This document shows, one piece after another, positions 5,262 to 15,225 of a stretch of 36,221 nucleotides of DNA; the first letter of the stretch is position 1; every line of letters starts with the position of its first letter. The notes beneath the pieces were generated by a model. The model saw nothing but the letters and a program-made list of their open reading frames with translations. It searched no databases and had not been told where the DNA came from. The position numbers and the translations under genes were made by a program. Source of the DNA: a virus; IMG/VR virus record IMGVR_UViG_3300029775_000009, positions 1 through 36,221 of that record; one strand, given 5' to 3'.

Positions 5262-6395
5262 ATGGTAAAAGTATATTTAGACCCTGGGCACGGTGGAATT
5301 GATCCCGGAGCGGAGGGCTGTGGAAAAAAAGAATCAGAATGTGCACTGGCAGTTGCACGAAAAGTAATGGAACTTTTGCCGGGCAGGTACTTTGAAGCTC
5401 GTATGAGCCGAAATAGCCAAAACATACCGGATAACAACCACCCAAATTCAGACCTAAATAGACGCGCAAGAGAAGCAAATGCATGGGGTGCTGACATCTA
5501 TGTAAGTATCCACCTTAACGCTTGCCCTGGCGGACATGGCATCGAAACGTTGCATAGCGTTGTAGGTGGTAAGTCTACCGTACTGGCACAGGATATCCAG
5601 GCTGCTGTACTAGCGGCTTGCCCCGGATATACCAATAGAGGGTTGAAAACACAGCTATCCAGCGACGGCGTTCATGACCGTGTGTGCGTTATCCGTGAAT
5701 CCGCCATGCCTGCGGCGCTTGTAGAATGCGGATTTATTGACAATCCGGCGGATATGAGCCACTGGAATGCGGACAAGTTTGCACAAGGCATTACGGCTGG
5801 TATCTGCAAATACTTTTGTGTTGCTTATAACGCACCTGTTTCTATAGTGCAGAGCAACGTATCTTCACTTGCTCTTGCGCCAGCCGGTGCGGCCTATAAG
5901 CTGGATACCACAGGGACATTTGCACTCTGCTATGATGGGACTTATCAGCTGGAGGCGACATGCGCCTCCGGACGGCCGATAATCTCCGCCGGAACTGCAG
6001 GTGTTGTTGATATTACATACACACATCATGGTGGAAGCAAATATTACTATACGCTGAAAGGTACGGGCACAGTGGGGCAGGCAACAGGGCTGTATGTCAA
6101 CAAATGCAAATATTCGGCATTGGTTGTCAAAATCGTAAGTGCCTGCAAAAGCGATACAACGCAGGACTTGCAGCGTGCAGTAGGGCAGTGCTATACGGTT
6201 GGGCTTACCAGCCCTACCAAGCCAAGCGTGACGGCTGGAACTGGTAATGTTGCGACAATTGCCGGAGTTTTCTCAAACGGTTCTGGAAAGTGGTTGTGCC
6301 CAATTGTGGCCGTGCGTCCGGGTGTTACTGGCATCTATACCGAGGTCCCGGGCGAGGGAAGTCCGGTGAAACGATTTGAATTTAAGGTGGTATGA
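5262..6395 (+). CDS. N-acetylmuramoyl-L-alanine amidase endolysin (Amidase_3 type) with a duplicated C-terminal domain of unknown type
   Basis: The N-terminus MVKVYLDPGHGGIDPGA...SIHLNA...LVECGFIDN is characteristic of the Amidase_3/CwlD family. The gene lies next to the holin. Confidence 0.85.
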   Translation: MVKVYLDPGHGGIDPGAEGCGKKESECALAVARKVMELLPGRYFEARMSRNSQNIPDNNHPNSDLNRRAREANAWGADIYVSIHLNACPGGHGIETLHSVVGGKSTVLAQDIQAAVLAACPGYTNRGLKTQLSSDGVHDRVCVIRESAMPAALVECGFIDNPADMSHWNADKFAQGITAGICKYFCVAYNAPVSIVQSNVSSLALAPAGAAYKLDTTGTFALCYDGTYQLEATCASGRPIISAGTAGVVDITYTHHGGSKYYYTLKGTGTVGQATGLYVNKCKYSALVVKIVSACKSDTTQDLQRAVGQCYTVGLTSPTKPSVTAGTGNVATIAGVFSNGSGKWLCPIVAVRPGVTGIYTEVPGEGSPVKRFEFKVV

Positions 6396-6398
6396 TGG

Positions 6399-6692
6399 AT
6401 GGGCGCGGTAGACATTGGGCTGCTGATTGCGGTCGTCGGCTGTTTTGTCGGTCTTGCAGGATGGCTGTCCGGCCGAGACAAAAAAATTCTTGGGGACGGC
6501 GAATGGAAAGGGACAGTAAATACAAAACTTGATGACATCAAGTCATCCGTAAGCGGTACAAATGCGCAACTGGATAAAATGGACGGCGCCATTTCCGCGC
6601 ATGAAACGCGGATTACAGAAGTTGAATCCAGCACAAAGCAGGCGCATAAACGCATTGACCGATTAGACAAAATTGTTGACGATAAAAATTAA
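6399..6692 (+). CDS. Membrane-anchored coiled-coil protein of the lysis cassette (holin-accessory candidate)
   Basis: 97 aa with an N-terminal TM segment (GLLIAVVGCFVGLAGWL) followed by a charged coiled coil. It sits between the endolysin and the holin. Confidence 0.45.
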   Translation: MGAVDIGLLIAVVGCFVGLAGWLSGRDKKILGDGEWKGTVNTKLDDIKSSVSGTNAQLDKMDGAISAHETRITEVESSTKQAHKRIDRLDKIVDDKN

Positions 6693-6707
6693 ACGGAGGT
6701 ACATATT

Positions 6708-7139
6708 ATGAGTATTATGACAGTTATTGTGATTGCTATTGTGGCAGTCGCTATTGTAGCTGTTTGCTATACCTGTATTTATCTTGCAAAGCACGGAATT
6801 AATGTACAGGGTGGACTGCAGACGGCAGATGCAGGGCTGACTATCGCTAATACCGTAACTGACACACTGAAAGCCGCTATGCCTAATAACAAGGCCATAA
6901 GCGTAATTGATAAGGTTGTCGATTACGCGCATACGGGAGTGCAGGCAGCCGAACAGATGGCAAAGTCCGGCCAGATTACAGCTGCACAGCGTAAGGAACA
7001 GGCAAACCAGTACATCACTACTGCGCTGAATTATGCAGGCATTGAAGTAACACCGGAAATTCAGACAGCAATTGACGGAGCGGTTGAGTGTGCTGTTGCG
7101 GCACTGCCAAAGTCTAATTTGCCCGTAAAGGTAGCCTAA
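6708..7139 (+). CDS. Holin, LL-H family-like
   Basis: 143 aa with an N-terminal TM segment (IMTVIVIAIVAVAIVAVCYTCIYL) and a long helical tail with a QRKEQA...GIEVTPE..IDGAVE pattern, as in Holin_LLH proteins. RBS GGAGG. It is the last gene before a bidirectional terminator. Confidence 0.65.
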   Translation: MSIMTVIVIAIVAVAIVAVCYTCIYLAKHGINVQGGLQTADAGLTIANTVTDTLKAAMPNNKAISVIDKVVDYAHTGVQAAEQMAKSGQITAAQRKEQANQYITTALNYAGIEVTPEIQTAIDGAVECAVAALPKSNLPVKVA

Positions 7140-10044: not shown

Positions 10045-10709
10045 TTCCGAGGTGTCCGGACAAAAAGAACGAAACTGATATTGAAAATTTGATACCACTT
10101 AACAGGCTTTTTGCTTACCCGTCGGAGCCGTTTCTTCAAAATGGAGGGTACACAATACTTGATAGCGGCGCTTATGGACTATACCAGCGTGGTAGCAGCA
10201 TCAACTTGAACTATATGAAAAAATTAAGTGCACATTATGAAAAATATGCAACTGAAAATGTGTTTTGCGTTGCACCTGATGAATATTTAAATCCAATTGC
10301 TTCCCTGAGTAATTTCATAAGCTGGAAAAATTCAAAACTATTTCAGTCAGTTTGTCCGGTTATACAAAGCTGGCATGAAAAACAAATCGATGAAAATTGT
10401 ATAATGAAGCAAGTAAAATTTTATCGAAAAAATACGAATCAAGATAGAATATTCTTTTCAAATAATGCCCTTACTGCCAGTGAGGCAAGCTTCTTTGGAC
10501 TGAATGAGATATTCAGAAAGATTCATCAAGCAGGGTTTAAGTGGATTCATGATCTTGGCGCAGGGTGGAGTCTTAAAGACATTAAGGAATGGAAAAAATT
10601 CGAGCAGCTGGACAGCATGGACAGTATTGCTTATTACAGCACAAAAAATATAAACGAGTTTGGTTCACTCAATCCATTTGAAAACGTAAAATCAATCTGT
10701 CGATTGTAA
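10023..10709 (+). CDS. tRNA-guanine transglycosylase / DpdA-like (TGT superfamily) enzyme candidate
   Basis: 228 aa. Four motifs occur in the order found in TGT enzymes (DSGGFQ ... FDEC ... [LM]GVG ... DxFD). They are ILDSGAYGL (D47, nt 10161), VAPDEY (D86), IHDLGAGW (aa 175-182) and LDSMDS (aa 196-201). The GTG start at 10023 (GGAGG at 10014-10018) overlaps the upstream gene by 22 nt; TTG 10029 is an alternative start. Confidence 0.5.
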   Translation: MYLPQYVIPRCPDKKNETDIENLIPLNRLFAYPSEPFLQNGGYTILDSGAYGLYQRGSSINLNYMKKLSAHYEKYATENVFCVAPDEYLNPIASLSNFISWKNSKLFQSVCPVIQSWHEKQIDENCIMKQVKFYRKNTNQDRIFFSNNALTASEASFFGLNEIFRKIHQAGFKWIHDLGAGWSLKDIKEWKKFEQLDSMDSIAYYSTKNINEFGSLNPFENVKSICRL

Positions 10710-10742
10710 AAGTCAAAGCCATAGACAACTGTATGTAACATC

Positions 10743-10782
10743 AAAAAAAAGCCCAACGGAAATTAATTCGTTGGGCTTTTTT
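10743..10782. terminator. Bidirectional rho-independent terminator
   Basis: An A8 run, GCCCAACG (10751-10758), a loop, CGTTGGGC (10769-10776), then a T6 run. It closes the + operon and the convergent minus-strand operon. Confidence 0.8.
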
Positions 10783-10832
10783 ATTTTCCAGAATGGAGAG
10801 ATTAAAAATACAATATTATTATACTATCTGTG

Positions 10833-11246
10833 TCAAGCTTCAGCGCCGTTTGTCAGTCCCATCAAAAACGCAGTACGTGCCGTATCAATGTCTTTTGAGC
10901 CTTTGCAAATTTCTAGCGGGGCATCGGATTTACTGATTAGGCGTTTTAAAAGTAACGACTCAAATTCGCTTGAATCTTTATGCTGCACGTCAATGAGCTG
11001 ATTGAAAAACGCATGTTCACTTTTTTTCAATCCTGCTGCCTTTGCTGCCGCTATTCCAGCGTTATACATTTCTTCTTTCATTTGTAGCTCTCCTTTTTTC
11101 GCTTTAATATATGGTTCTTCCGAGTCAATGACCCAGTTTCGCCCAATTTTTTTGGCGGTTTTGAACCCGCCACGGCAAGCCTTTTGCCGGACGGAAATTG
11201 CTGCTTTACCGTGTGCAGCTGCGTATTTAGATAGACTAATTAGCAT
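10833..11246 (-). CDS. HTH DNA-binding protein (Aca-like position)
   Basis: 137 aa. The N-terminus ISLSKYAAAHGKAAISVRQKACRGGFKTAKKIGRNWVI resembles excisionase/MerR-type HTH domains. It is the second gene of a two-gene minus-strand operon. Confidence 0.5.
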   Translation of the reverse strand: MLISLSKYAAAHGKAAISVRQKACRGGFKTAKKIGRNWVIDSEEPYIKAKKGELQMKEEMYNAGIAAAKAAGLKKSEHAFFNQLIDVQHKDSSEFESLLLKRLISKSDAPLEICKGSKDIDTARTAFLMGLTNGAEA

Positions 11247-11650
11247 TTTAAGTCCTCCAACTCATCAACTTTTTCAAGCTCTACTTCGTAAAATCCCATT
11301 TCCTCAAAATCTTCGTCGGAAGAAACAGAGATTATTTTTAGCTTAGTTTCTGCTGGAAGCAGACATTCTCCTTCGGACTCGCAGCCACCCGCATCCAGCA
11401 CGTCACATTCTTCGTCATTATCATAGTCTACTTTGTGACATTCGATGTCATCAACGTACAAAACATATTCTACAGAATTTTTAAGTTCTGGGTAAAAGTC
11501 TTCCGTACCGTCTGGGCCCATCCAGCTTTCTGCTTTTCCGCGATTATCATAAATATCTCCAGCTTTGAAAGCGCCTTTATAATTAAGCGTTATAATTCTC
11601 GCAAGGTCCGCTTTACAGTTAATTTTATTTGCAATTTCATTCTTTGTCAT
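11240..11650 (-). CDS. Acidic, Cys-containing hypothetical protein (anti-defence candidate)
   Basis: 136 aa with RBS AAGGAAGGAAG. The C-terminal half is very rich in D/E. It is the first gene after a consensus promoter. Confidence 0.5.
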   Translation of the reverse strand: MTKNEIANKINCKADLARIITLNYKGAFKAGDIYDNRGKAESWMGPDGTEDFYPELKNSVEYVLYVDDIECHKVDYDNDEECDVLDAGGCESEGECLLPAETKLKIISVSSDEDFEEMGFYEVELEKVDELEDLKC

Positions 11651-11682
11651 TTTGATTACTTCCTTCCTTAATTTCTATATTT

Positions 11683-11711
11683 ATTATACATCTATATCGA
11701 TGTATTGTCAA
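11683..11711 (-). promoter_or_regulatory. Consensus sigma-70 promoter with an inverted repeat in the spacer
   Basis: The minus strand reads TTGACA (11711-11706), a 17-nt spacer, then TATAAT (11688-11683). The spacer contains TACATC-N6-GATGTA. Confidence 0.7.
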
Positions 11712-11858
11712 TACTTTTTTGAAAATATTTTAAAAAAAATCCGCTCTGACCTCCCCGGCGGTGTCAAAGCAGAATTCGAGTCGCATTTGATGTTTAAAAC
11801 GGTGTATTCGTGGTATTGACGCGAGTACTAAAGTACAGCATTCTGTACTCAAAAAGGC

Positions 11859-11898
11859 AGAAAAAATGCGGCCTCACGGGAAAATCCCATGAAACCGC
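11859..11898 (-). terminator. Rho-independent terminator of the RHH operon
   Basis: Minus-strand RNA GCGGUUUCAUGGG-AUUUUC-CCGUGAGGCCGC forms a 13-bp stem with G-U pairs, followed by AUUUUUUCU. Confidence 0.7.
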
Positions 11899-12024
11899 AC
11901 TTTCTAATTCTTTCCGCATTTGTGAACAGTCCATCATTGTATATAGATTTCAGATTCAGTAAAATTCTGCTCTCTTAACCTTTCTTTCGCCGGAAGGCAT
12001 ACGATGTCTGTAAGCAGCATATCG

Positions 12025-12204
12025 TTACTTCTCCCGGATATACTTTTCTGCGAACTCTCTAATAAGAGTATTCACGGTTGTTCCGTTTTCGTATGCTTTC
12101 CAGCGAAACGCTTCCGCAATATCGGCCCGCATTGAAGCACTTATGTGCCCCATATGTTTTGCATCCCAGCGCTGAGACGCCCTCTTTTGTGCTTCACTTT
12201 TCAT
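12025..12204 (-). CDS. Ribbon-helix-helix protein (59 aa, not in the ORF track), paralogue-like of 7173..7382
   Basis: My translation of the minus strand gives MKSEAQKRASQRWDAKHMGHISASMRADIAEAFRWKAYENGTTVNTLIREFAEKYIREK*. RBS AAAGGAGGTG. The layout matches the 7173 protein (K-rich N-terminus, beta-strand, ..A...G.T.N.[LF]I...I.E). Confidence 0.6.
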   Translation of the reverse strand: MKSEAQKRASQRWDAKHMGHISASMRADIAEAFRWKAYENGTTVNTLIREFAEKYIREK

Positions 12205-12347
12205 TTAAGCACCTCCTTTATAACCCTGCAATTCCACGACAGCTGCAATTCTTCCATGCTCGTTCCACACTGCATTGGCAGGAATGGATACACCGCTCCT
12301 GCCGGTGCTGCCGGCTTTTTAATTTTGTACTTTTGCTCTGCCATCAT
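12201..12347 (-). CDS. Possible 48-aa ORF coupled by an ATGA overlap to the RHH gene
   Basis: MMAEQKYKIKKPAAPAGAVYPFLPMQCGTSMEELQLSWNCRVIKEVLK*. Its stop overlaps the RHH ATG. There is no convincing RBS. Confidence 0.25.
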   Translation of the reverse strand: MMAEQKYKIKKPAAPAGAVYPFLPMQCGTSMEELQLSWNCRVIKEVLK

Positions 12348-12405
12348 CGGTGCTGGTGGAGCGGTTCCAGCAGACGCCCTTACGGGCGTTTCGGCTTGTA
12401 CTCCA

Positions 12406-12696
12406 TTATCCCATCTCGTCCTCTTCGACCTTCCGAATCACGTTCCTGTTTTCGTCTACCCATACCGGCGTAAAGTCTTGCAGGTGGTCCTCGTTGAAAT
12501 AGTCCTCCTCAGTTTCCTTTTCTGCTTCTTCGAGTGTCATACCCTCGTCCATAAGGCCCTCAATTTCATACCATAGCGTCCCGTTTTCACCTAGCGCAAA
12601 CTGTTCTTTCAAGTATTTTTTGTCGCTCTCGATGATTTCATCTTGACTAAAAATAACACCAGTATAATTGTTTTCGTACATGATTTCCTTTTTCAT
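12406..12696 (-). CDS. Highly acidic small protein (anti-defence / DNA-mimic candidate)
   Basis: I start it at ATG 12696 (GGAGG at 12709-12705, 8-nt spacing) rather than 12711. It is 96 aa and very rich in E/D (..EEAEKETEEDYFNEDHLQDF..EEDEMG). Confidence 0.55.
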   Translation of the reverse strand: MKKEIMYENNYTGVIFSQDEIIESDKKYLKEQFALGENGTLWYEIEGLMDEGMTLEEAEKETEEDYFNEDHLQDFTPVWVDENRNVIRKVEEDEMG

Positions 12697-12739
12697 TTTT
12701 GTTTCCTCCATTTTTTGTTTATCTCTTGACTACTCTTAT

Positions 12740-12768
12740 ATTATATACTGTATACAGTATAAAGTCAA
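12740..12768 (-). promoter_or_regulatory. Consensus sigma-70 promoter with an 18-bp perfect palindrome
   Basis: The minus strand reads TTGACT (12768-12763), a 17-nt spacer, then TATAAT (12745-12740). The palindrome TATACTGTATACAGTATA (12744-12761) fills the spacer and overlaps the -10. Confidence 0.7.
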
Positions 12769-12897
12769 GCGTTTTTACAAAAAAGATGAATTATTTTTGT
12801 AATCAAAAAGTAGTCAAAAGGTAGTCAAAGACCAAAAAGAGTAAAAAGAAACCGCACAGCCAAACCTAAAAAACGGCTTAACCATGCGGTTTTTCTT

Positions 12898-12947
12898 TGG
12901 AGCTGCTGGGCGGGCTCGAACCGCTGACCTCTTGACTGCCAGTCAGG
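12898..12947 (-). other. tRNA 3'-terminal fragment (T-arm, acceptor 3' strand, CCA): candidate attP core
   Basis: The minus strand reads ..AGCGG-TTCGAGC-CCGCC-CAGCAGC-T-CCA, i.e. a GTTCGAGCC T-loop context and a CCA end at 12898. No matching 5' acceptor strand (GCTGCTG) or D-arm lies upstream. A hairpin plus T-run follows downstream (12842-12897, minus strand). Confidence 0.5.
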
Positions 12948-12990
12948 TCGTCAATCTCCAGAAAATCCGCATTGCAAAGCCATTTTTCAA

Positions 12991-13209
12991 CTATGAATTT
13001 TGTTTTGACTGACTGCTTGACTGACTAGCAAATAATTTTTGTATTTTTTCATCTGCCATTTCTTCTATTTTATTTGATGGGATATTATTTATTATGCCAC
13101 CTTCATATTTTTGAACAGTTTGTTTACTAACACCGATTTTTTTGAGCTACTTCTGCCAGGGTTAACCCAGCAGAAGATCTATACTTTTTAATATTATCTT
13201 TGAGCGACA
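12991..13209 (-). pseudogene. XRE-family HTH gene disrupted by two compensating frameshifts
   Basis: The ATG frame (start 13209) gives MSLKIILKSIDLLLG*. The next frame reads ..DNIKKYRSSAGLTLAEVAQKNRC*. After a T7 run (13137-13143, A7 on the minus strand) the first frame resumes with IGVSKQTVQKYEGGIINNIPSNKIEEMADEKIQKLFASQSSSQSKQNS*. Joined, these read as a canonical XRE HTH. Confidence 0.6.
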
Positions 13210-13298
13210 TGTTCTTTCCCCTTTATTTAATGCTGATTGTATTACACCACATTTAGCGTATTAAGCAACATTTTTTTAGAAAAAAGCTAAAAAGTCTA

Positions 13299-13327
13299 TT
13301 GATAAGCGAAAGCACAAGCGATATAAT
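13299..13327 (+). promoter_or_regulatory. Consensus early promoter with AAGCGA repeats
   Basis: TTGATA (13299-13304), a 17-nt spacer, then TATAAT (13322-13327). The spacer is AGCGAAAGCACAAGCGA, and a further AAGCGA lies at 13339-13344. Confidence 0.65.
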
Positions 13328-13366
13328 AGTAGCGTAATAAGCGATTCACAGAAAGAAGGTGAAAAA

Positions 13367-13576
13367 ATGATTGCAGTAAATGAACTAAAAGGCAAAATTG
13401 TTGCAAAAGGTTTTACGCAAGAACAAGTAGCTAAAATGTTAGGGATTAGTGCAAATACTTTTCGCAAGCGGCTTTCTCGTGGGGTGTTAGGGTCAGACGA
13501 AATCGAAAAGCTAATCAAAATTCTTGATATTGAAGATCCAATGGCTATATTTTTTTGTGAAAAAGCCGCCTGTTAA
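13367..13576 (+). CDS. Small HTH regulator (Cro-like)
   Basis: 69 aa with RBS AAGAAGGTG. The HTH is GFTQEQVAKMLGISANTFRKRLSRG. Confidence 0.6.
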   Translation: MIAVNELKGKIVAKGFTQEQVAKMLGISANTFRKRLSRGVLGSDEIEKLIKILDIEDPMAIFFCEKAAC

Positions 13577-13641
13577 GTGACTAATCTCCGCACCAAATCC
13601 GCTTAAAAAAAGAAAGGAAAAATTTACAAGGAGGCACCATA

Positions 13642-14367
13642 ATGAACGATTTAACAGTATTCAACCGTGGCGGTCAGCTTTACACTGACAGCCGCGACGT
13701 TGCAAAAATGGTTGGAAAAGACCATGCGCACCTTATGCGTGACATCAAAAAATACGTTGGTGTTTTAACTCGATCCAAAATTGGTTTCAGTGATTTCTTT
13801 ATAGAATCCACTTATAAAGACCCTACTGGACGTACTCTTCCCTGTTACCTTATCACAAAAAAGGGCTGTGAATTTGTTGCGAATAAGCTGACTGGCGAAA
13901 AAGGAATTTTGTTCACGGCTACATATATAAATGCCTTTCACAAGATGGAAGATACCATCAAGCAGCTGCCAGCCGCTCAGCCAGAGGATTACAAGCTTAT
14001 CCGTGCTAAAGCCATGGGTCTCAATGCAAAAACAAAAGCTTTCAAGGCTATTATGACCGCCGCAAAAGACAAGCAGCTGTCTGCAGTAGCTGCACAGGTG
14101 TATGGCATCAAGGGCATGGAAAACCTGGCCGGGGAGGGAATTGGCGCACTGCCAGAAACCGGCCCGCTGTACACCGCAACGGAGATTGCAAATGCGCTGC
14201 ATACAACTGCCGCAAAAGTTGGGAAAGTTGCTAATGCAAATAATCTCAAAACAGATGAATATGGTATCTGGGCGCTAGACAAATCCAGATACAGCGGCAA
14301 ACAGGTAAACAGCTTTCGCTATAATCAGCACGGCAAAGACAAGCTGAAAGAGCTTTTCGACGCTTAG
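13642..14367 (+). CDS. Rha-family phage regulatory protein / antirepressor
   Basis: The N-terminus MNDLTVFNRGGQLYTDSRDVAKMVGKDHAHLMRDIKKY is typical of Phage_pRha. RBS AAGGAGG. Confidence 0.75.
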   Translation: MNDLTVFNRGGQLYTDSRDVAKMVGKDHAHLMRDIKKYVGVLTRSKIGFSDFFIESTYKDPTGRTLPCYLITKKGCEFVANKLTGEKGILFTATYINAFHKMEDTIKQLPAAQPEDYKLIRAKAMGLNAKTKAFKAIMTAAKDKQLSAVAAQVYGIKGMENLAGEGIGALPETGPLYTATEIANALHTTAAKVGKVANANNLKTDEYGIWALDKSRYSGKQVNSFRYNQHGKDKLKELFDA

Positions 14368-14573: not shown

Positions 14574-14846
14574 TCAAATCGCGCGTTTCATCGTCAAGAA
14601 CAACAATATTATCATGCTCATCTCGGACCTGCACGTTATGTGTGGGTTCTTTTTTTGCTCGTTTCCAAGAAGATAATCAAGCGTCACTCCGAGATAGTTG
14701 GCTATCTTCTGTAGCTTTTCTGTTTTGGGAACGCTACGCCCTCTTTTCCAGTCGCTTAAAGTGCTTTGTGGAACCCCAGTTTCTTTGGATACTCGGTAGG
14801 GAGTAATTTTTCTTTTTTTTAAAAGTTGCTCAAATATTTCATACAT
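14574..14846 (-). CDS. XRE-family CI-like repressor (as read: 90 aa; apparently frameshifted at an A7 run, see findings)
   Basis: I start it at ATG 14846 (MYEIFEQLLKKRKITPYRVSKETGVPQSTLSDWKRGRSVPKTEKLQKIANYLGVTLDYLLGNEQKK..). It has a classic XRE HTH and is divergent from the early promoter at 14892. Confidence 0.7.
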   Translation of the reverse strand: MYEIFEQLLKKRKITPYRVSKETGVPQSTLSDWKRGRSVPKTEKLQKIANYLGVTLDYLLGNEQKKNPHITCRSEMSMIILLFLTMKRAI

Positions 14847-14891
14847 TTTTAGTACACCTTTCACGAATCGGAAAATACTTAGCAAATGCTA

Positions 14892-15060: not shown

Positions 15061-15225
15061 ATGTCAGAATTGTATACTTGCGCCCAAGTTGCCGACAGAT
15101 ACCACGTTAAAACGTTAACCGTGTGGGATTGGATTCGCAAGCACAAGCTTCACGCCAAGAAGATTGGCAAGCAGTACCTTATCAGCAACGAGGACATAAA
15201 GGACTTTGAAAAGGAGGCTACATAA
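15061..15225 (+). CDS. Excisionase/MerR-type HTH protein (54 aa, not in the ORF track), Cro position
   Basis: My translation is MSELYTCAQVADRYHVKTLTVWDWIRKHKLHAKKIGKQYLISNEDIKDFEKEAT*. RBS AAGGAG at 15047-15052. Confidence 0.65.
   Translation: MSELYTCAQVADRYHVKTLTVWDWIRKHKLHAKKIGKQYLISNEDIKDFEKEAT

Follow-up and report, generated by a model that had tools for sequence, protein, structure and literature searches.

A hybrid tRNA-derived core marks a probable orphaned attachment site in a siphovirus of anaerobic fermentation communities

Introduction

Among dairy phages, spontaneous deletions of the lysogeny module are said to occur in phage Sfi21, and the virulent Lactobacillus phage LL-H reportedly carries defective remnants of int and attP when compared with mv4. 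Passages of PMC5601072 that cite Lucchini et al. (1999) refer to a lysogeny replacement module in virulent Streptococcus thermophilus phages, and TP-J34L has been described as a clear-plaque deletion derivative of TP-J34 (PMC3952083). In the elements treated by Islander, integration splits a tRNA gene, which is then regenerated by the copy of its 3′ part that the element brings along (PMC4383910). Mycobacteriophage Ms6 recombines in the T loop at the 3′ end of a tRNA gene, and changes in its tRNA-derived attP core shift or broaden the tRNA genes used (PMC1762012).

In this work we analyze a tRNA-derived attachment site in a complete IMG/VR virus record (IMGVR_UViG_3300029775_000009). The window, that is, the whole stretch of DNA that was analyzed, comprises the full 36,221 nt of this record and has a terminal repeat of 79 nt. 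The phage originates from anaerobic fermentation communities and is most likely a siphovirus that was formerly temperate. Our results make it very probable that the locus is an orphaned attP, left behind when a once-temperate phage was deprived of its integrase by a 2.5-kb deletion. An earlier note, made from inspection of the window, had put forward the same outline, an attP-like footprint in an ex-temperate phage with a deleted integrase. The intact relatives reported here, and the 2,476-nt deletion mapped against them, bear this out; for the satellite-dependent element that the note had offered as another option, support is lacking. The kind of phage, made ex-temperate by deletion of its lysogeny module, is already known, and what is unusual is the Ala/Thr hybrid core and an unusually complete natural record of the event.

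Materials and methods

All coordinates refer to the window unless a contig is named. The scan for tRNA-Thr genes left two variable T-loop bases open and matched at least 120 loci, nearly all of them in Oscillospiraceae; the tRNA-Thr(GGU) identity of these loci was assigned with ARAGORN and by inspection. The sequencing runs with contigs on the stretch 11800-14200 were mostly fermentation metagenomes and came from nine studies. These run contigs are short unitigs, and the gaps among them (e.g. 12873-12915 in run X1) carry no information.

Results

The tRNA-like fragment lies in an orphan island of 444 nt (12777-13220) set between two mosaic junctions. To the left of the island, the promoter at 12688-12776 is 98% identical to contig L250; to its right, the stretch 13221-13490 is 99% identical to L231, in which a different leftward module follows. 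Proteins encoded by neighboring genes (Rha, a 101-aa ORF, cro and an acidic protein) led only to the mosaic relatives L122, L231, L250 and L251, and the att region is absent from these relatives. Megablast of 12400-13600 against the phage collection returned zero matches, and a distant-mode search of this region yielded only short chance-level matches and one tRNA-Thr-type fragment. The early genes are the usual siphovirus replication set; a search among them found no partition or telomere-resolving genes, and maintenance as a plasmid prophage was rejected on these grounds. The window also keeps a second CI-like gene (14574-14885) and two HTH_17 genes, the domains being found in the very genes at 15061 and 15399 that the earlier note had listed as helix-turn-helix genes. 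Given the identity of the tRNA parts and the habitat, the host likely belongs to the Oscillospiraceae.

Several observations concern these surroundings. L231:1-5850 has the cro gene and the operator region in common with the window (99% over 13221-13490), and the place of the XRE-integrase module is taken there by genes for a PAPS-reductase/DUF3440 protein and an SNF2-type helicase, in an arrangement that resembles defence-type cargo. The promoter segment 12713-12776, which includes an 18-bp palindrome, is duplicated in sister contigs: an extra cassette of ~0.9 kb lies between two copies of this 64-nt promoter in L270:434-1323, and a joint stepping back 64 nt at the same segment occurs in runs X1 and X5. 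It seems that acr-like operons are shuffled through recombination at this promoter. Further to the left, a 66-nt stretch between two small minus-strand ORFs (12331-12399) has matches of 78-85% in some Oscillospiraceae genomes; three copies of it are present on one contig of genome G363, and it may be a small repeated element or RNA.

On the minus strand, positions 12947-12898 carry a variable loop, a T arm, the 7-nt 3′ strand of an acceptor stem, a discriminator T and CCA, and inspection thereby confirmed the T arm, acceptor strand and CCA that had been read there before. The tRNA 3′ piece extends left to 12945, which gives a core of 48 nt (12945-12898, minus strand). ARAGORN called no tRNA genes in the whole window, Rfam reported no tRNA-like match in 12500-13400 at E <= 10, and both a D arm and an acceptor 5′ strand are absent upstream of 12945. 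The negative ARAGORN and Rfam results indicate that no tRNA 5′ half is present, as had been claimed, and the fragment has neither the complete cloverleaf nor the paired acceptor stem of a functional tRNA gene.

The two ends of this core match different tRNAs. A tRNA-Thr(GGU)-type part (12898-12924, minus strand), comprising the T stem, T loop, acceptor 3′ strand, discriminator T and CCA, is identical (27/27) to the clostridial tRNA-Thr(GGU) gene L113/L206, and more than 117 other Oscillospiraceae tRNA-Thr genes match it at 25/27. A DNA search of five genomes matched by the scan found the left part of the fragment to be closer to tRNA-Ala(GGC). This tRNA-Ala(GGC)-type part (12916-12945, minus strand) takes in the anticodon stem and loop (GGC), the variable loop, the 5′ strand of the T stem with A49 and the start of the T loop, and it is identical over 30/30 nt to the tRNA-Ala(GGC) of L210, L213, L216 and L224-L229. 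The identical variant came from the viral scan and is also present in several sampled Oscillospiraceae genomes. Extended to 36 nt (12910-12945), the match to tRNA-Ala(GGC) genes is 35/36, and the tRNA-Ala identity starts at a tRNA position common to other Ala-type phage att sites (L211, L212 and L277). The Ala-type and Thr-type parts overlap in the 9-nt segment 12924-12916, which is common to both tRNAs; the switch from one to the other falls in the T loop, where 9-15 nt are common to both.

Taken together, the 35/36 match to tRNA-Ala(GGC) and the 27/27 match to tRNA-Thr(GGU) exclude a chance match. The matching bacterial tRNA predicted by the earlier note was found in so far as near-identical tRNA 3′ parts exist, but no single tRNA in the searched collections covers all 48 nt of the core. 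The 28-mer that spans the T arm and acceptor end has no exact match in the genome, viral or metagenome collections, and a G49 variant of the fragment found no match in the viral collection. The core is a chimera in which the 3′ parts of two tRNAs are joined, a combination absent from the cellular tRNAs of the searched collections. The 3′ end of a tmRNA, with its Ala-like acceptor, was also considered and rejected, since its geometry needs a 3-nt insertion and the tRNA-Thr reading is exact.

The tRNA-Thr(GGU) gene of Oscillospiraceae is a heavily used integration site in the bacterial loci surveyed (L002-L121). About 50 of the 123 tRNA-Thr(GGU) matches are 3′ fragments that lack a 5′ half and start in the anticodon loop; these fragments show several recurrent upstream arm families, and some contigs hold a full tRNA-Thr(GGU) gene and a fragment 1-10 kb apart. 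A survey of the integrase side at tRNA-Thr prophage junctions gave a heterogeneous picture.

A profile search of the six frames of the window for PF00589, PF00239 and PF07508 returned nothing at E <= 10, with positive results in control genomes, and upheld the earlier statement that no recombinase is encoded; the PF00589 catalytic domain with its tyrosine, which defines a tyrosine recombinase, is lacking. What is left is a 3′ remnant of a tyrosine integrase gene (12991-13062, minus strand), made up of codons 377-399 and the stop codon (12993-12991). The tail encoded by its 23 codons (12994-13062) agrees residue for residue with the C-terminus of the 399-aa integrases P0004/P0003, the DNA of the remnant is 100% identical to L258, L262 and L275, and the catalytic tyrosine motif just upstream of it is deleted in the window and kept in the relatives. 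Protein searches with the 51-aa frame at 13146-12994 matched its N-terminal part to 121-aa XRE regulators and its tail to 399-aa integrases. Some run contigs match the window over 12910-13062 and then diverge on both sides, continuing below 12910 into a true tRNA-Ala 3′ end and above 13062 into an in-frame tyrosine-integrase motif, IYTHI.

Upstream of the remnant lies the 5′ part of an XRE-type repressor gene (13063-13210, minus strand), which holds codons 1-49, codons 50-52 being supplied by the junction segment. The gene has a weak HTH_3 match and intact 121-aa homologues (P0001 and P0027). A decayed XRE gene had been said to abut the tRNA fragment directly; the gene is there, but the 23-codon integrase remnant fused to it lies between the two. 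The deletion junction is a 9-nt microhomology, GAAATGGCA (13054-13062, minus strand), which occurs in both the XRE and the integrase genes of the intact form and at which the integrase codons are fused in frame to XRE codon 52. An extra A in the run 13137-13143 (A7) shifts the XRE frame, the X5 and X6 contigs and L275 having A6 at this place; because run X1 agrees with the window, the frameshift is taken to be a real population variant and not a read error. In the 401 Oscillospiraceae genomes, neither the XRE fragment nor the integrase has a close homologue.

The whole module is found on two single contigs, L275 and L262. L275 (2,856 nt, from a fermentation metagenome) carries, all in one direction, XRE (121 aa), orf92, orf207, the integrase (399 aa, at 1602-2801 of the contig, with domains PF14659 and PF00589) and the same spacer as the window, and it stops within the start of the same core. 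L262 (3,174 nt) has the same gene order beside a cro-like gene. In the relatives L275, L262 and L265, the gene for the 399-aa integrase ends 45 nt upstream of the same core. In BLAST comparisons, the window corresponds to L275 1-262 (98.9%, with one extra A) followed by L275 2730-2856 (100%), with a 9-nt overlap. Missing from it are 2,476 nt, which hold XRE codons 53-121, the two small ORFs and codons 1-376 of the integrase. In run X1, both the junction and the frameshift are spanned with zero differences by a unitig of 414 nt (12916-13329). The window has in L275, then, a close relative with an intact lysogeny module from which it is set apart by a discrete deletion, as expected of an ex-temperate phage.

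Other contigs carry further deletions of the same module (in L275 coordinates). Deletion 332/2785, of 2,460 nt, is present in L259, L271, L272 and L273, and its fusion protein falls in a 19-member protein cluster; deletion 314/2802, of ~2,487 nt, has taken the whole integrase gene from L276; and deletion 1271/2633, of 1,371 nt, has left L270 with the last ~53 integrase codons. Each of the four deletions, that of the window included, has a short microhomology different from the others, and in every case the integrase is lost wholly or for the most part. Intact and deleted forms were found in runs of the same study, that of SRR1561989 to SRR1562000.

The hybrid core recurs among these deleted forms. 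Three independent ENA contigs (L259, L270 and L271) run from the P arm through a hybrid core into the same P′ arm as the window, and the variants of the core in the window and these contigs differ at position 49 (A/G), at one T-loop base (C/T) and at one acceptor base (C/T). All the contigs in which the core is followed by the Thr-type end, the terminator and the TTTGACTAC repeats, namely the window and the same three contigs, are integrase-deleted free-phage forms. At the level of sequence, these contigs show the hybrid core to be the normal attP of the lineage, carried by three deletion types. Since three independent deletions share it, the intact ancestor would already have had the hybrid core. 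No contig was found in which an integrase gene of full length is linked to the hybrid core and P′ arm, and we infer the integrase-plus parent with a hybrid core from the core common to the three deletion types.

Two other sequences break off inside the core. L272:1150-5467, which carries the second type of deletion, agrees with the window as far as the first bases of the T loop (12918). Beyond this point it enters a different element, which encodes an XRE regulator and a primase-polymerase/AAA_25 protein and whose sequence at the junction does not resemble a tRNA; this junction could be a product of secondary recombination or a satellite-like element beside the att site. L273:2011-2257 and L274 (proteins P0010 and P0020) leave the window sequence at 12933, in the 3′ strand of the anticodon stem, and continue into unrelated sequence, which makes a second and different break point within the core.

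Integrase-bearing contigs identify a target gene. In L265, the spacer and the shared 30 nt are followed by a genuine tRNA-Ala 3′ end, the same as in L226, with a different terminator after it, and run X13 has the same integrase-core-tRNA-Ala junction. The closest other integrase (67% identity) lies 45 nt before a tRNA-Ala(GGC) fragment with the same tRNA start position. Read as an integrase-proximal prophage junction, L265 makes tRNA-Ala(GGC) the attB; alternatively, it could come from a sister phage whose attP has a pure Ala core. These junctions show tRNA-Ala(GGC) as the predicted target of the integrase family of the intact form, in place of the tRNA whose acceptor end and CCA the earlier note had recognized. 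The crossover must fall in the 30-nt block, because this block is common to attP and the tRNA-Ala(GGC) gene.

The search for the host tRNA and for prophages integrated in it recovered matching tRNA genes and the L265 junction, but no lysogen among the 401 sampled Oscillospiraceae genomes. The reciprocal junction, a tRNA-Ala 5′ half joined to the Thr-type end, was not found in the metagenome or viral collections, and both hybrid-core contigs of the metagenome collection (n = 2) have the P arm upstream. When the tRNA-Ala 5′ part is joined to the 3′ part of the window, only 3/7 acceptor pairs form in the predicted junction and ARAGORN does not recognize it as a tRNA; the native tRNA-Ala gene has 7/7 pairs and is called. 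With 3/7 pairs and no call, integration is predicted to inactivate its tRNA-Ala target rather than to regenerate it, and the hybrid core, to judge from this predicted junction, would not rebuild the target tRNA.

Directly after CCA, the hairpin and T run pointed out earlier proved to be an intrinsic terminator with an 18-pair hairpin (12849-12892, minus strand) and a T run that reaches ~12840. It is the only terminator-like site in 12600-13450, and the fold of 12835-12955 has an energy of -43.9 kcal/mol with z = -3.1. The first 11-12 nt of the terminator and its T-run side resemble the terminators 3′ of tRNA-Thr in L202/L203. No host DNA was found 3′ of the terminator in comparisons with the 401 Oscillospiraceae genomes.

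Between the integrase stop codon and the opposite end of the core lies the P-arm spacer (12946-12990, minus strand). This spacer is identical in all the integrase-bearing contigs that reach it (L261-L265, L267 and L269); L258, L266 and L268 end inside it, and within L275 2730-2856 it is 100% identical. A hairpin in the spacer region (12960-12992) is ~85% identical over 34 nt to L265:1504-1537, the terminator after the true tRNA-Ala 3′ end. There are hints that the P arm may derive from the region downstream of a tRNA-Ala gene.

The P′ arm, which in the same form is present in L259, L270 and L271, bears repeats (12803-12833, minus strand) in the form of two copies of TTTGACTAC and one copy of TTTGATTAC, and these are candidate binding sites that may have served the lost integrase or a repressor. 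The hexamers TTGACT/AGTCAA number 8 in 12643-13017 (375 nt) as against 25 genome-wide, and copies flank the core to the left and right, oppositely oriented. These hexamers may represent integrase or repressor sites, or a stack of -35 boxes.

Discussion

In the intact form of this phage, leftward transcription runs through the XRE repressor, two small ORFs and the integrase, with the core and the terminator following. The deletion of 2,476 nt occurred between the two 9-nt microhomology copies and left a dead in-frame fusion, and this XRE-integrase fusion later gained its +1 frameshift. Deprived of both integrase and XRE repressor, the phage would no longer lysogenize by itself and would presumably propagate lytically. 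The second CI-like gene and the two HTH_17 genes that the window has kept speak against a lytic lifestyle. The depth of the deleted form in run X1, ~6,000-7,000 per unitig, is compatible with lytic growth and is no proof of it. The core and terminator would persist as a passive relic whose only likely role is to end leftward transcription. As for the hybrid core, a speculative origin is an older swap in which an Ala-type att site and a Thr-type one exchanged integration modules, and which would have taken place within the 9-15 nt of the T arm common to both.

One alternative is that attP still works, with the integrase provided in trans by a resident integrase-plus relative in a helper-dependent lysogeny. 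Core, P-arm spacer and P′ repeats have indeed been preserved and differ little or not at all from their counterparts in the sister contigs, one study has runs with integrase-plus forms as well as deleted ones, and the two excisionase-like HTH_17 genes have been kept. A recent deletion, however, predicts the preservation of the core equally well, and no junction between the deleted form and a tRNA gene turned up. The repressor has moreover lost its C-terminal half and its remnant is frameshifted, which makes the maintenance of lysogeny doubtful, and we regard helper-dependent lysogeny as improbable.

A second alternative would have the hybrid and the loss of the integrase arise together, by aberrant excision (lambda bio/gal style) from a secondary tRNA-Thr site, so that the DNA on the CCA side would be host DNA. 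Such an event would account for a core that begins as Ala-type and turns into Thr-type within the shared T arm, and for the 11-12 nt after CCA that resemble the tRNA-Thr terminators of L202/L203, and the integrase does lie on the CCA side in two unrelated Ala-type phages (G006 and G007). In this lineage, however, the integrase was on the opposite side of the core, where its 3′ end still stands. When 10700-13400 was compared with the 401 Oscillospiraceae genomes, only the tRNA part matched, and the DNA on the CCA side is phage cargo also present in the phage contigs L250 and L251. Three deletion types have the same hybrid core and P′ arm, from which it follows that the hybrid predates the deletions, and a joint origin by aberrant excision is very unlikely. 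A replacement of the P′ side, considered by analogy with G006/G007 and their integrase on the CCA side, is disproved for this lineage by the integrase remnant on the other side.

An assembly artefact, in which the fragment or the hybrid would result from a mis-join at the conserved T arm, is hardly credible: contigs L261-L264, L267 and L277 do end inside the core, a sign that assembly graphs branch there, but the segment common to both tRNAs (9-15 nt) is below any assembly word size, three independent ENA assemblies (L259, L270 and L271) span the region with the same architecture, and the X1 unitigs agree with the window on both sides.

Beyond the preferred reading of an orphaned attP left by deletion of the integrase, we put forward one joint claim, tentatively and with a confidence that falls somewhat short of even: the integrase would dock on the anticodon arm of tRNA-Ala(GGC) and the phage would bring the acceptor end of tRNA-Thr, such that lysogeny would kill one copy of tRNA-Ala(GGC); the shared T arm would act as the linker for swaps of integration modules among phages with different tRNA targets; and recurrent, microhomology-mediated loss of the integrase would yield lytic variants that dominate fermentation communities.

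A lysogeny-like switch and a tRNA fragment are insufficient to call a metagenomic phage temperate, and the ancestral state of a deleted phage can be recovered from public contigs. The presence of at least four different deletions of the same integrase looks like convergent selection for virulence, which matters for the dynamics of phages in industrial anaerobic fermentations. If prophage junctions confirm the predicted integration, the Ala/Thr core would be a rare exception to the target-restoring rule, and it would provide a concrete example of att cores as module-exchange points.

Like the cases covered by Islander, this locus in its intact form combines a tyrosine integrase that has an N-terminal SAM-like domain with an adjacent tRNA 3′ fragment in the same orientation, and the junction in L265 is of the displaced-fragment type, with an identity block that begins in the anticodon stem. 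It departs from the Islander rule in that the 3′ part borne by the phage switches to the acceptor strand of another tRNA and the target is predicted to be inactivated. A tRNA-Ala target is shared with Ms6, but here the tRNA-Ala identity starts in the anticodon arm and stops in the T loop, at the point where that of Ms6 sets in, and the hosts and integrases are unrelated. The likeness to the deletion derivatives of dairy phages extends to a temperate siphovirus backbone, a fermentation habitat, a deletion of a few kb that is limited to the lysogeny module and leaves the rest of the genome intact, and remnants of lysogeny genes between the lysis and early genes. Unlike those derivatives, the phage described here has a host in an uncultured clostridial lineage and is known from sequence alone, its deletion has been mapped to the base against intact metagenome relatives, and the four independent pairs of deletion end points arose in nature and not in the laboratory.
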